Below, piece after piece: positions 51,853 to 55,424 of a stretch of DNA of 64,000 bases. Below the pieces are notes generated by a model. It saw only the letters and a program-made list of their open reading frames with translations. It was not told where the DNA came from and searched no databases. Each line of letters begins with the position of its first letter. Positions within the stretch are counted from its first letter, which is position 1. Origin of the DNA: Escherichia coli. GTDB lineage: Bacteria > Pseudomonadota > Gammaproteobacteria > Enterobacterales > Enterobacteriaceae. The DNA lies in NCBI RefSeq assembly GCF_044647545.1, contig NZ_CP172818.1; one strand, written 5' to 3'. A program made the position numbers and the translations under genes.

Positions 51853-53103
51853 ATGGAAAGTAAAGTAGTTGTTCCGGCACAAGGCAAGAAGATCACCCTG
51901 CAAAACGGCAAACTCAACGTTCCTGAAAATCCGATTATCCCTTACATTGAAGGTGATGGAATCGGTGTAGATGTAACCCCAGCCATGCTGAAAGTGGTCG
52001 ACGCTGCAGTCGAGAAAGCCTATAAAGGCGAGCGTAAAATCTCCTGGATGGAAATTTACACCGGTGAAAAATCCACACAGGTTTATGGTCAGGATGTCTG
52101 GCTACCTGCTGAAACCCTTGATCTGATTCGTGAATATCGCGTTGCCATCAAAGGCCCGCTGACCACTCCGGTTGGTGGTGGTATTCGCTCTCTCAACGTT
52201 GCTCTGCGCCAGGAACTGGATCTCTACATCTGCCTGCGTCCGGTACGTTACTATCAGGGCACTCCAAGCCCGGTTAAACACCCTGAACTGACCGATATGG
52301 TTATCTTCCGTGAAAACTCGGAAGACATTTATGCGGGTATCGAATGGAAAGCAGACTCTGCCGACGCTGAGAAAGTGATTAAATTCCTGCGTGAAGAGAT
52401 GGGCGTGAAGAAAATTCGCTTCCCGGAACATTGCGGCATCGGTATTAAGCCGTGTTCTGAAGAAGGCACCAAACGTCTGGTTCGTGCAGCGATCGAATAC
52501 GCAATTGCTAACGATCGTGACTCTGTGACCCTGGTGCACAAAGGCAACATCATGAAGTTCACCGAAGGCGCGTTTAAAGACTGGGGCTACCAGCTGGCGC
52601 GTGAAGAGTTTGGCGGTGAACTGATCGACGGCGGCCCGTGGCTGAAAGTTAAAAACCCGAACACCGGCAAAGAGATCGTCATTAAAGACGTGATTGCTGA
52701 TGCATTCCTGCAACAGATCCTGCTGCGTCCGGCTGAATATGATGTTATCGCCTGTATGAACCTGAACGGTGACTACATTTCTGACGCCCTGGCAGCGCAG
52801 GTTGGCGGTATCGGTATCGCCCCTGGCGCAAACATCGGTGACGAATGCGCCCTGTTTGAAGCCACCCACGGTACTGCGCCGAAATATGCCGGTCAGGACA
52901 AAGTAAACCCAGGCTCTATTATTCTCTCCGCTGAGATGATGTTACGCCATATGGGCTGGACTGAAGCCGCAGACTTGATTGTTAAAGGTATGGAAGGCGC
53001 AATCAACGCCAAGACTGTAACCTATGACTTCGAACGTCTGATGGAAGGCGCTAAACTGCTGAAATGTTCAGAGTTTGGTGACGCGATCATCAAGAATATG
53101 TAA
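51853..53103 (+). CDS. icd: isocitrate dehydrogenase (NADP); 3' end carries the e14 attachment junction
   Basis: ORF track 416 aa, [38 protein letters not shown]. Confidence 0.97.
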
Positions 53104-53126
53104 TTACTACATGTGTTAAATATTGT

Positions 53127-53157
53127 AACGGGCGTATAACACGCCCGTTGTTTTTTG
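53127..53157 (+). terminator. rho-independent terminator after icd
   Basis: aacgggcg-tataaca-cgcccgtt followed by ttgtttttt. Confidence 0.8.
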
Positions 53158-53172
53158 TTAGGCTGCTAACGG

Positions 53173-53205
53173 TTATCAAAATTTTATCAAAAAAAGTTAT
53201 CAAAA
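53173..53205 (+). repeat. three direct repeats of TTATCAAAA (candidate integrase arm-type or accessory-factor sites near attL)
   Basis: ttatcaaaa at 53173-53181, 53184-53192 and 53197-53205 in the icd-ymfD intergenic region. Confidence 0.4.
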
Positions 53206-53520
53206 CCCCTCGGTAGTTTTGGGGTAGGCTGGCCGGTCAGGTGGTAGTTCTACTACTAGTCTCCCACATAGATATTCCTTAGCTTTTTATTATTGCTGGC
53301 GGACGCTCGTTAATATTTAAGGTCTTCATTGATTAAGACATCCCCAAAGTTAGTTATGTATTCACTGTTATTAGGACAATTATGAATTACCACTCCTTAC
53401 ACCCGCTCAAATATTGTTAAATTGCCGGTTTTGTATCAACTACTCACCCGGGACTCGCCAGGGGACAGCCAACAGGCATTGGGTGCAATCACCTTAGCGT
53501 TCAGGTACATGCGGAATGTA

Positions 53521-53543
53521 AAAAAGGCCGCGAGCGCGGCCCC
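53521..53543 (-). terminator. rho-independent terminator after ymfD
   Basis: plus strand aaaaaggccgcgagcgcggcccc; on minus strand a GC hairpin followed by UUUUU. Confidence 0.7.
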
Positions 53544-53596
53544 TTCACATACATCTTTAGTACTGAGACTGTTTAACCTAGGGAATTATTATCGTA

Positions 53597-54262
53597 TTAT
53601 ATTGCATTACAACTCCCAACAGTGACATATGAACTTCCTGCTTTACTCCACGACTTTAATATTTCAAGGCCATGTGAAGAACATATTTCTTGCACTGCGA
53701 GTTCATCGAGTAATCCATAGTAAGAAACACTTTTTGAATTTTTGTAAATGTATCCGTAAAGATGTTTTCTTCCTGTTTCGTATTTTTTGAAGTATGAGCT
53801 TTTATATTGATTTACAATAAGAGTCTCACCTCCTGATTTTAGTAATCTCTTGATGCTAAGAACTATTTTGTCGATTGTATCCCGACAAGGAACGGCAGAG
53901 AGAACATTAGAGCAAAGGATGAAATCGTAACCCCCAATTATTTTGTCGACATCCTCGAAAGCAACTGTATTTGCATTTTTATAATATCGTGGGACATAGT
54001 CAATAATTTTAGTTTTAATTCCTCTAATAATTTGCTCTCTTTCAAGTTGCCTTTTCGAGTCTAGAAAAGTAACTTCATCAAATTTACTGATTAATTCATC
54101 AGAATATCTAAGTTTTCCGCAGCCAAAATCAAGGGCGTGGCCATTTTTCTCAATGCTTCTAATATACTCGCAAAGATATCTAGAGGGCATCGTATGAGGT
54201 TTTGCTGCATTCTCTGAGCGAATATTAACTCCGTGCATATTATAGTTCAAAGCAAGTACCAT
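53597..54262 (-). CDS. ymfD: e14 putative class I SAM-dependent methyltransferase
   Basis: ORF track 221 aa; motif I ALDFGCGKL, acidic beta-2 end VTFLD, DFILCSNVL; AT-rich; start abuts ymfE stop with 0-nt gap. Confidence 0.85.
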   Translation of the reverse strand: MVLALNYNMHGVNIRSENAAKPHTMPSRYLCEYIRSIEKNGHALDFGCGKLRYSDELISKFDEVTFLDSKRQLEREQIIRGIKTKIIDYVPRYYKNANTVAFEDVDKIIGGYDFILCSNVLSAVPCRDTIDKIVLSIKRLLKSGGETLIVNQYKSSYFKKYETGRKHLYGYIYKNSKSVSYYGLLDELAVQEICSSHGLEILKSWSKAGSSYVTVGSCNAI

Positions 54263-54976
54263 TCAATTAATGTTATTTTTAGTGAAAAATTCTTTTATTT
54301 TATCGTCCGGGATTTTTCCGACTTGACTTTCAGTTCTGGGCTTAACTGTCAAAGCAAAGATAATACCACTCACTGAGAATGATAAAATTACAAAAAAGAA
54401 TAAAGACAGCAAAGAACCTTCAACATGAAAAATATCCATTTGTTTGCAAAAAAAGATTATTAGGAAGGAAATTAATGCAATTATCGAAAATTCAAAAAAT
54501 ATCCAAAAATAGTATACTTTATTCCAGAAGAGTTCAATATAATGTTTGTCTTCAATTTTTCTTACTTCAGGGTAATATAGATTGCTCATTACATTGTGAG
54601 CTTCATCTTTATTTAATTTTCTGTTGACTCCAGCTCTCCGTGATAACGGTTTTATAATTAGATGCTTATCCCAAAGATATCGCACCCGAAGTAGTTTGGC
54701 TGCATTGTTATGTAGGTCTAACGCACCGCTAATTAAATATGCAAAAATCGCAAAAGCACAAGGTAATATACCAAAAGATAGTGCCCAATTAATAAAGCTC
54801 TCATGATCTTTAATAGGTGGGACATACTTGGTTGGTAATGTTATTAAAGGGATGTATTCGTAAATAACTAGAAGTATGCAATATATTAGCGTATTTAAGA
54901 AAGTTGCTTTATGAAGTTTAGGCAACATTTCATTATAATTTTTGGGGGGTTCGAACATATTATTCACCTGAGTCAC
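54263..54976 (-). CDS. ymfE: e14 multi-pass inner membrane protein (start ambiguous: ATG 54976 or GTG 54967)
   Basis: ORF track 237 aa; several hydrophobic helices; AT-rich. Confidence 0.8.
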   Translation of the reverse strand: MTQVNNMFEPPKNYNEMLPKLHKATFLNTLIYCILLVIYEYIPLITLPTKYVPPIKDHESFINWALSFGILPCAFAIFAYLISGALDLHNNAAKLLRVRYLWDKHLIIKPLSRRAGVNRKLNKDEAHNVMSNLYYPEVRKIEDKHYIELFWNKVYYFWIFFEFSIIALISFLIIFFCKQMDIFHVEGSLLSLFFFVILSFSVSGIIFALTVKPRTESQVGKIPDDKIKEFFTKNNIN

Positions 54977-55167
54977 GCTTTAGGATAGTGTAATGGTAAT
55001 ATTTAATTAAGTGTCATTATATACTTTTCAGTAGGTTAGTTACAATTTTTTGTATCTGTTCAGGCTGACCTAGCTTCGCTGACAGACAATATTGTGATCA
55101 GTAGCACGTATCGAGGAGGAGTAGCGCTACAAATTTGACGCTGGGTGAGAATCTGAAATTGATAGAA

Positions 55168-55235
55168 ATGAAATAATGAAATAATGAAATGATGAAATGA
55201 TGAAATGATGAAATGATGAAATGATGAAATGATGA
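55168..55235. repeat. octanucleotide tandem repeat (ATGAAATR) x8.5 in ymfE/lit divergent intergenic region
   Basis: atgaaat recurs with exact 8-nt period at 55168, 55176, 55184, 55192, 55200, 55208, 55216 and 55224, then a partial atga; spacer base a (x2) then g (x6). Confidence 0.9.
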
Positions 55236-55424
55236 CAGAGTGTCCAGTGGGCACGGATGGTGTCTTACGACATGCTTACCTTAATCGTTCCCAGTGTGCC
55301 TATAGCAGATATTCTAAACATGTCGATAATTCATTACGCATATAGTATCGAACATAGAAAAAACTGAAGATTCATCTTATTTTGTATATACTACCTAGCC
55401 CAACAATGTAGAGGTTAACGAAAA

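Follow-up and report, generated by a model that had tools for sequence, protein, structure and literature searches.

The tehAB operon, which belongs to the chromosomal core, combines a gene for a membrane protein with one for a class I S-adenosylmethionine (SAM)-dependent methyltransferase, and the same layout is found in ymfE-ymfD (ymfED), the gene pair of Escherichia coli that is the subject of this study. With regard to position, it can be compared with the serotype-converting cassettes of temperate phages (gtrABC, oac), which are located next to int/attP, and with cargo slots of the P2/P4 type, that is the variable defence hotspots of temperate phages and satellites, a concept that reportedly goes back to Rousset et al. 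2022. Restriction-modification (R-M), BREX, DISARM and MADS systems likewise contain SAM-dependent methyltransferases and are located in defence islands. Kiwa, finally, has been described as a complex that is embedded in the membrane and detects changes induced there by phages (bioRxiv 10.1101/2023.02.26.530102). The pair studied here resides in a window of 64,000 nucleotides (nt), the whole stretch of DNA that was analysed (RefSeq assembly GCF_044647545.1, contig NZ_CP172818.1). The region is that of E. coli K-12 icd and the cryptic lambdoid prophage e14, and the pair lies between icd/attL and lit/intE. As laid out below, ymfE and ymfD make up a two-gene module that is self-contained and horizontally mobile and has a promoter-like site and a terminator-like hairpin of its own; it occupies two independent variable prophage cargo slots and makes a good candidate for a phage-defence or exclusion system.

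The resemblance to Kiwa is one of architecture and of location. In both cases a gene for a four-transmembrane protein of ~200 amino acids (aa) is followed by the gene for a cytoplasmic partner in a two-gene cassette, and Kiwa uses the same slot between hokD and a DUF977 gene of Qin/Rac-like prophages as a YmfED-like pair. The Kiwa partner, however, is a DUF4868 DNA-binding protein, whereas that of YmfE is a SAM-dependent methyltransferase. Membership in Kiwa was rejected, as the YmfE profile aligned with KwaA at an hhalign probability of only 0.35% and the pair had no PADLOC match to KwaA or KwaB. TehB is among the best specific matches of YmfD, but ymfED travels as mobile cargo in prophages and islands and is not a core operon. 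An assignment of the two proteins to TehB and TehA was likewise discarded: YmfD scored 30.4 versus a cut-off of 218 for NF008405, 21.6 versus 303 for NF008992 and 16.5 versus 219.5 for TIGR00477, and YmfE, with four transmembrane helices and no Pfam match, is not a ten-transmembrane protein of the SLAC1/TDT type.

With R-M, BREX, DISARM and MADS systems the pair shares the methyltransferase and the defence-island location, including a weak match of YmfD to mad2 of MADS. The DNA methyltransferases of these systems possess DPPY or PCQ/ENV motifs together with target-recognition domains, whereas YmfD has none of these, and ymfED comes without a nuclease or ATPase partner, the membrane protein being the only one. 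Like gtrABC and oac, the genes are accessory, lie between att and int, are expressed from a prophage and include one for a small multi-pass membrane protein. Unlike those cassettes, ymfED encodes neither a glycosyltransferase nor an acyltransferase, YmfE has its conserved residues on the cytoplasmic side, and the pair is also found outside of prophages, where it adjoins Hachiman and CBASS. The closest parallel in organization is to the P2/P4-type hotspots, in which conserved flanks also bracket mutually exclusive cargo including known defence systems, and in which the cargo is also AT-rich with promoter-like and terminator-like signals of its own; the slots described here, however, belong to lambdoid prophages of the e14 and Qin/Rac types.

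The evidence that ymfE and ymfD form one module rests above all on the constancy of their pairing. When the stop-to-stop open reading frames (ORFs) of every fetched locus were scanned with hidden Markov models for the YmfE and YmfD families, each of the 43 loci for which downstream DNA is available was found to encode a YmfD homologue directly 3' of the YmfE homologue and in the same orientation; in the sole locus outside this count the contig ends at the ymfE homologue. Pairing holds in Enterobacterales, Pseudomonas, Neptuniibacter and Marinomonas and in four members of a distant branch including one on a Bradyrhizobium plasmid, and a pattern-based scan of genome contigs yielded at least six loci. 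The methyltransferase of the distant branch has no precomputed Pfam match and yet shares 33% identity with YmfD, with the motif IRSENAAKP intact. Once starts had been assigned, intact pairs proved to have a spacing of -26 to +14 nt between the two genes; in one locus, whose ymfE frame is extended at the C-terminal end, the value is -71 nt. In the window the plus strand reads cattca at 54260-54265, that is TGA ATG with zero spacer on the coding strand (54265-54260), just as the first-pass annotation, which was made from the letters of the window, had described it. This junction probably provides for translational coupling of ymfE and ymfD. Since a tight junction recurs in all 43 loci, it is not a matter of chance.

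The two proteins have also diverged in concert, pairwise identities of YmfE and YmfD correlating at r = 0.98 (25 distinct pairs), and both genes are under purifying selection, the median ratio of nonsynonymous to synonymous substitution rates (dN/dS) being 0.11 for ymfE and 0.19 for ymfD. When the flanking ORFs of 18 representative loci were compared all versus all, no conserved third gene emerged and hence neither a nuclease nor a specificity gene linked to the pair. The view of the pair as one unit, for which co-occurrence across loci had been named as a check, is thus borne out. In some E. coli copies (L005, L006, L043) the ymfE homologue is frameshifted or interrupted and the methyltransferase gene is intact, which suggests occasional inactivation of the membrane partner.

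Judged from motifs and predicted fold, YmfD appears to be a real methyltransferase of a subfamily of its own and not a DNA methyltransferase of the R-M type. It matches Methyltransf_12 (1.9e-7), Methyltransf_23 (4.3e-6), Methyltransf_11 and, weakly, TehB in Pfam. The class I SAM motifs pointed out in the first-pass annotation are present: motif I, the glycine-rich SAM-binding loop of the type E/D-x-G-x-G-x-G, reads LDFGCGKL, and a conserved acidic residue lies within FLD. Across an alignment of 14 divergent pairs D45, G47, C48 and G49 of motif I are invariant, and so are D68 and S69, which include the acidic residue expected at the end of strand beta-2. The signature of these 14 family members comprises IR(S/T)ENAAKP, D45-x-G-C-G, R52, Y53, D68, S69, Q72 and R75, followed by Y112, V-L-S-x-x-P125, G170, Y182 and G183. 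Two in-frame alternative starts of ymfD, a TTG at codon 5 and an ATG at codon 9, both lie 5' of the conserved IRSENAAKP motif. The AlphaFold2 (AF2) model is a single domain with alternating strand/helix order and a predicted local distance difference test score (pLDDT) of 85-95. Foldseek matched it to 805 PDB entries at E <= 1e-3, the best 50 of these 805 all being methyltransferases or close fold relatives. The fold neighbours include Trm9, nicotinamide N-methyltransferase NNMT, the phosphonate O-methyltransferase DhpI, NodS and natural-product O-methyltransferases, all at ~15% identity; by sequence, the closest solved structures are an uncharacterised archaeal methyltransferase and TehB (E ~1e-3). 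In NCBIfam the top matches are the OvoA C-terminal domain, TehB, CpaM and BioC at 15-32 bits versus cut-offs of 170-303. As all equivalog scores are far below the cut-offs, YmfD has no housekeeping orthologue. Strong housekeeping homology of YmfD with a pair that is not conserved had been named beforehand as contrary evidence, and neither was found.

A pattern scan of YmfD for a DPPY-type motif, (D/N/S)PP(Y/F/W), as in N6A/N4C enzymes, and for ENV, which together with PCQ marks C5 enzymes, remained without result. The first-pass annotation had stated that DPPY/NPPY and PC are both missing; this stands for the former but not for the latter, as a PC dipeptide is present at residues 125-126. Relatives have F, S, D, K or L in place of its cysteine. 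Because this cysteine is not conserved and ENV and DPPY are lacking, the statement that YmfD is devoid of a DNA-methyltransferase motif still holds. An R-M-type DNA methyltransferase was rejected on these grounds and because the 221-aa single-domain protein has no target-recognition domain. The closest folds are those of methyltransferases acting on tRNA side chains or small molecules, in agreement with the earlier proposal that the substrate is probably not DNA in the R-M sense.

YmfE represents a membrane protein family that has not been described. It has no match in Pfam, NCBIfam, PHROGs or PADLOC (0 PADLOC families at E <= 1), and 20 distant relatives scanned singly against Pfam gave no match either; the Pfam check proposed earlier returned generic class I methyltransferase families for YmfD and nothing for YmfE. 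Hydropathy reveals four hydrophobic helices at residues ~23-41, 62-80, 153-171 and 183-201, in line with the multi-pass protein initially noted. The central loop of 72 aa contains 14 lysine or arginine versus 8 aspartate or glutamate residues, and because of this excess of positive charge the loop and both termini are placed in the cytoplasm. The AF2 model has a pLDDT of 87. No clear structural relative beyond the family itself was identified: Foldseek against AFDB50 returned one DUF4231 protein (E = 3e-3, template modelling score 0.42-0.49) and one protein named SLATT at E = 0.52. When 1.84 billion representatives were searched exhaustively with a profile, 238 relatives emerged at E <= 1e-3, only 15 of which reach 1e-30, and the distant branch (L019, L045, L046, L047, L049) joins the family at the profile level only (hhalign 99.9%). 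Invariant or nearly invariant are Y8, H83, R93, D97, P104, Y129, H139, W152 and E/D156. According to the 14-pair alignment and the predicted topology, all of them are cytoplasmic or at the membrane interface, a pattern more in keeping with a surface for binding or catalysis than with a simple pore.

Three start codons come into question for ymfE, namely GTG at 54976 (longest ORF), GTG at 54967 (RefSeq) and ATG at 54958. The first of these had been taken as the end of the gene in the first-pass annotation. All YmfE homologues begin at the equivalent of ATG 54958, and a Shine-Dalgarno-like sequence is appropriately spaced from it (Table 1), so the start was assigned to this codon. This correction and that of the PC dipeptide are minor and leave the conclusion drawn earlier unchanged.

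The 2.1-kb stretch with ymfD and ymfE is 100% identical to MG1655-type genomes. Among 5426 complete E. coli genomes, no more than 282, essentially those of the K-12 lineage, carry it at >=99% identity. Two E. coli 'plasmid' records of ~15.2 kb, OR902851.1 and OR902858.1, carry ymfE at 98.6-100% identity, and by their size they correspond to e14 excised as a circle and not to a true plasmid. Gene order in RefSeq is icd, ymfD and ymfE (-), lit (+), intE and xisE (-). The first-pass annotation had rightly described the pair as AT-rich, the GC content being 29-35% over ymfD, ymfE and lit versus ~50% in icd, and had rightly named Lit as its divergently transcribed neighbour. The lit gene is a known defence gene that forms the context of ymfE-ymfD and lies outside the module. 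According to PMC3105296, e14 integrates in icd.

Two independent variable prophage cargo slots are occupied by the cassette. An e14-type integrase at 80-95% identity is present in about 220 non-K-12 genomes, of which seven were sampled (L050-L056). Together with K-12, the slot between icd and intE (53104-56408 of the window) accommodates eight different cargos, each of the seven sampled strains having a distinct one (Table 1). A second, common allele of ymfE-ymfD, 60-68% identical to that of K-12, was found in 151 of 5426 E. coli genomes. It is located in Qin/Rac-like lambdoid prophages between hokD/rem and the DUF977 gene, beside a SMEK-domain gene. The loci covered for this slot are L001-L008 and L057-L059. 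In other strains this hokD-DUF977 slot contains a complete Kiwa system (KwaA 1.3e-101, KwaB 2.8e-159), an AbiU-like AIPR protein (8.8e-24) or the PADLOC candidate PDC-S39 (2e-102). Both sites thus combine conserved flanks with mutually exclusive variable cargo, and validated defence systems are among the alternatives in each of them (Lit, DarTG and Septu between icd and intE, Kiwa between hokD and DUF977, in addition to the AbiU-like protein and PDC-S39). The earlier suggestion of a moron or defence position between attL and the integrase is therefore backed more strongly than it had been put. Neither site is described as a hotspot in the literature searched.

Pairs outside these two slots are found in diverse surroundings. 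In Pseudomonas sp. PICF141 (L009:386-5334) Hachiman hamA-hamB precedes the pair in the same orientation at a distance of 170 nt, and the two could thus be co-transcribed. On the Bradyrhizobium plasmid the neighbours are CBASS and a nuclease associated with a prokaryotic Argonaute. In one metagenome contig a transposase and a protein with a weak Abi_C match adjoin the pair. Other contexts are a site after a lambda-P-like replication gene of another prophage and an integrase-bounded islet in Enterobacter. In IMG/VR, 25 prophage regions carry the pair. An E. coli prophage with a YmfED-like pair also encodes RosmerTA (RmrA 6e-105, RmrT 5e-25) between rem and hok (L001:4435-6169).

Regarding expression, a sigma-70-like promoter candidate precedes ymfE and a hairpin resembling an intrinsic terminator follows ymfD (Table 1). 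The former was found by a consensus scan, and because such sites are no more frequent in the region than in shuffled sequence, the site alone is weak evidence. A second sigma-70-like site spans the ymfE/ymfD junction (54239-54266, minus strand; TTGAAT, 16-nt spacer, TATAAT; 10/12 matches). The hairpin combines a GC-rich stem with a U run in the predicted fold; the 96-nt stretch has a z-score of only -1.5, and the structure is absent from the consensus-scan list. The intergenic region that contains the first of these sites has been reported to be an H-NS-bound 'promoter island' (PMC3661553), and ymfD and ymfE are outside the SOS/lytic regulon of e14, with log2 changes of <=0.6 versus 4-5 for ymfJ and ymfM (PMC11002266). 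The lack of SOS induction and the binding of H-NS therefore make the pair look like an autonomous, normally silenced moron and not like a part of the lytic programme. In one transcriptome ymfD was up by 1.7 log2 with ymfE unchanged.

The reading that we favour is that YmfE and YmfD act together at the inner membrane face and protect the lysogen from other phages, a proposal that may well be correct and whose prospects we judge to be evenly balanced. YmfE would be an integral inner-membrane protein with four transmembrane helices and both termini inside the cell, and YmfD a soluble methyltransferase made by coupled translation from the same mRNA. Both would act jointly at the cytoplasmic face of the inner membrane, where YmfE could recruit or gate YmfD or present substrate to it. 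YmfD, in turn, would methylate a target other than DNA, be it a small molecule, a lipid-linked or membrane-associated compound, RNA or a protein component. Protection could take the form of exclusion at the envelope via a methylated membrane-associated or incoming target, or that of a Kiwa-like membrane sensor with a cytoplasmic effector. A more far-reaching version, which is conceivable and which we offer only tentatively, regards the pair as a founding two-gene anti-phage system in which YmfE senses infection at the envelope and controls YmfD, and in which a methylated non-DNA target disables the invader or the infected cell. To our knowledge, methylation of a non-DNA target has not been described as effector chemistry in bacterial immunity.

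A number of findings weigh against a role in defence. The conserved polar motifs of YmfE are no less compatible with an enzyme or a subunit that binds substrate than with a sensor or pore. No natural fusion of YmfE and YmfD was present among the best 150 representatives, all of which are <=289 aa. As a stand-in for the complex prediction suggested at the outset, YmfE, a 30-aa Gly/Ser linker and YmfD were modelled as one chain with AF2 on the basis of 14 paired sequences; both halves folded well (pLDDT 81) but the predicted template modelling score (pTM) was 0.48 and no confident interface resulted. Likewise, the PADLOC check for a known defence system came out negative. PADLOC-DB v2.0.0 contains no model for the pair, and its identity with a known PADLOC v2 system or candidate was dismissed, as YmfE matches 0 families and YmfD only mad2 (8.6e-5, methyltransferase core), and no system has models that match both. 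The cargo of the hokD-DUF977 slot is not exclusively defensive, as it also comprises QueH, toxin-antitoxin genes and others. Four contexts, in Neptuniibacter, Marinomonas and two metagenome contigs, are without recognisable defence neighbour and make up about half of the independent non-prophage contexts. Neither protein is encoded among 50,697 deposited phage genomes, and no published phage assay links the pair to phage resistance in the literature searched.

Some of the same findings suit lysogenic conversion or a resistance unrelated to phage, for which ymfED would be a TehA/TehB-like or envelope-modifying module. The methyl acceptor of YmfD would then be a toxic anion or an antimicrobial, or else a lipid or a precursor of the envelope, YmfE would be a transporter, an anchor or a substrate-binding subunit, and the benefit would lie in stress tolerance, biofilm formation or colonisation and not in immunity. 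TehB and other small-molecule methyltransferases are indeed the best specific matches of YmfD, the tehAB operon with its membrane protein and SAM methyltransferase has a similar layout, and serotype-converting cassettes of temperate phages likewise adjoin int/att. The conserved cytoplasm-facing polar residues of YmfE are as for a binding or catalytic site, and several contexts are free of defence neighbours. Deletion of ymfD, moreover, lowered early biofilm formation, and the gene was induced in mature biofilm (PMC3105296). We nevertheless consider this explanation unlikely: the TehB equivalog scores amount to 16-30 bits versus cut-offs of 218-303, YmfE resembles no Pfam family, TehA/SLAC1 included, bona fide defence systems fill both prophage slots in other strains, and the distribution is sparse and patchy, with the common allele in 2.8% of natural E. 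coli genomes. Less probable still is an addiction or toxin-antitoxin-like module in which YmfE as a membrane-damaging toxin is restrained by YmfD, or the reverse, and which serves element stabilisation or abortive infection. A tightly coupled two-gene cassette on mobile elements would be typical of such modules, in E. coli prophages Hok/Gef and RosmerTA are neighbours of the pair, the hokD-DUF977 slot elsewhere contains toxin-antitoxin genes in its place, and the disrupted ymfE copies (L005, L006, L043) could be seen in the same light. Many conserved polar residues and a dN/dS of 0.11, however, distinguish YmfE from simple pore-forming toxins, and we know of no methyltransferase antitoxin paired with a membrane toxin. 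The ymfD deletion strain of the Keio collection is viable and grows normally (PMC12096079; PMC3936739), which is weak evidence, because silencing by H-NS may mask toxicity.

A similarly small chance is given to a nucleic-acid methyltransferase, that is to YmfD acting on DNA or RNA (N6-methyladenosine (m6A) in mRNA or rRNA, or a tRNA base) in epigenetic control or anti-restriction, with YmfE either unrelated or localising the enzyme. The best Foldseek match is the tRNA methyltransferase Trm9 (2.8e-9), the invariant basic residues R15, K21, R52 and R75 of YmfD are possible phosphate binders, and the MADS methyltransferase mad2 is matched weakly. An m6A-seq study found 32 peaks in the ymfD knockout versus 602 in the wild type; peak loss was similar, however, in all four unrelated knockouts, and the authors consider none of the genes to encode an m6A writer (PMC12096079). 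In addition, 23S rRNA m6A2030 was unchanged in a ymfD deletion (PMC3936739), YmfD has neither DPPY nor a conserved PCQ/ENV, its 221 aa leave no space for a target-recognition domain, and the obligatory membrane partner would be left without explanation. Finally, it is very improbable that the two ORFs are mere leftovers of the decaying prophage e14 without current function. The prophage is cryptic, the locus is bound by H-NS and poorly expressed, some E. coli copies are disrupted and several screens remained without phenotype; yet both genes are intact in K-12 with all family-invariant residues kept, dN/dS is low for both (0.11 for ymfE, 0.19 for ymfD) and the pair is conserved from Gammaproteobacteria to Alphaproteobacteria.

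Apart from the pair itself, a few elements in its surroundings deserve mention. In the ymfE-lit intergenic region an 8-bp tandem repeat is present at 55168-55235 (ATGAAATG x 8.5, 98% matches), which might alter the activity of the lit or ymfE promoter or be subject to variation through slippage. The repeat gives rise to a spurious 64-aa ORF on the minus strand (55060-55254). In several enterobacterial prophages a SMEK_N-domain protein of 299 aa (L002:8909-9808, minus strand) is encoded convergently to the YmfD homologue. Its N-terminus matches Aga_REase-PNTD1-PNTD2 of PADLOC (1e-20); in L001 it is truncated. No PADLOC match was obtained for the partner of the AriA-like ATPase in the icd-intE slot of strain G47-1.

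Table 1. Features of the ymfE-ymfD region, with positions in the window, and cargo of the icd-intE slot in the sampled strains
Feature	Position	Strand	Description
icd	51853..53103	+	left edge of slot; e14 attachment site at icd 3' end
Intrinsic-terminator-like hairpin	53520..53547	-	GGGGCCGCG-CUCG-CGCGGCC then U6; ~50 nt 3' of ymfD stop
ymfD	53597..54262	-	221 aa; predicted soluble class I SAM-dependent methyltransferase; N-terminal IR(S/T)ENAAKP motif
ymfE/ymfD junction	54260..54265	-	TGAATG; ymfE stop 54265-54263, ymfD ATG 54262-54260
ymfE	54263..54958	-	231 aa; four predicted transmembrane helices
Shine-Dalgarno-like sequence	54964..54969	-	AGGTGA; 5 nt 5' of ATG 54958; overlaps RefSeq GTG start
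Sigma-70-like promoter candidate for ymfE-ymfD	55016..55045	-	TTGTAA, 18-nt spacer, TATAAT; 10/12 matches; ~58 nt 5' of ATG
lit	55425..56318	+	divergent; PADLOC Lit 8.5e-124; RefSeq 'cell death peptidase Lit'
intE	56409..57536	-	right edge of variable cargo slot
icd-intE cargo, MDR_56			DarT/DarG, PADLOC 2e-31 and 6.6e-58
icd-intE cargo, FDAARGOS_536			Septu PtuA (2e-239) with PDC-M01B
icd-intE cargo, G47-1			AriA-like (PARIS-like) ATPase (8.6e-27) and 188-aa protein
icd-intE cargo, A42			Sll1717-family P-loop ATPase
icd-intE cargo, CDF6			348-aa hypothetical protein, no PADLOC match
icd-intE cargo, A8			1040-aa and 155-aa hypothetical proteins, no PADLOC match
icd-intE cargo, JNE070796			three hypothetical proteins, no PADLOC match

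In the literature searched, ymfD and ymfE appear in screens, deletions and expression tables only, and no relevant defence system consisting of a methyltransferase and a membrane protein was found. Both genes have for a long time carried the annotation 'function unknown'. New in this work are the finding that the pair is strictly conserved, the delimitation of the YmfE family, the signature of YmfD and the two hotspot contexts. The slots between icd and intE and between hokD and DUF977 matter whatever the function of the pair, as they hold known systems and further uncharacterised candidates, among them the 1040-aa protein, the 348-aa protein, the Sll1717 ATPase and the SMEK-domain protein. 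If the pair modifies a lipid or a metabolite, it would stand for a new chemistry of lysogenic conversion. If it is protective, a defence or exclusion system would be added whose effector, a methyltransferase of the small-molecule type tethered to or gated by a membrane protein, is without precedent, and with YmfE a new membrane-protein family would join the defence repertoire. As the cassette resides in K-12, tests could draw on Keio and ASKA clones, on strains free of e14 and on standard phage panels, and would take only weeks. An anti-phage system of this kind, silenced by H-NS, would sit in E. coli K-12 itself.

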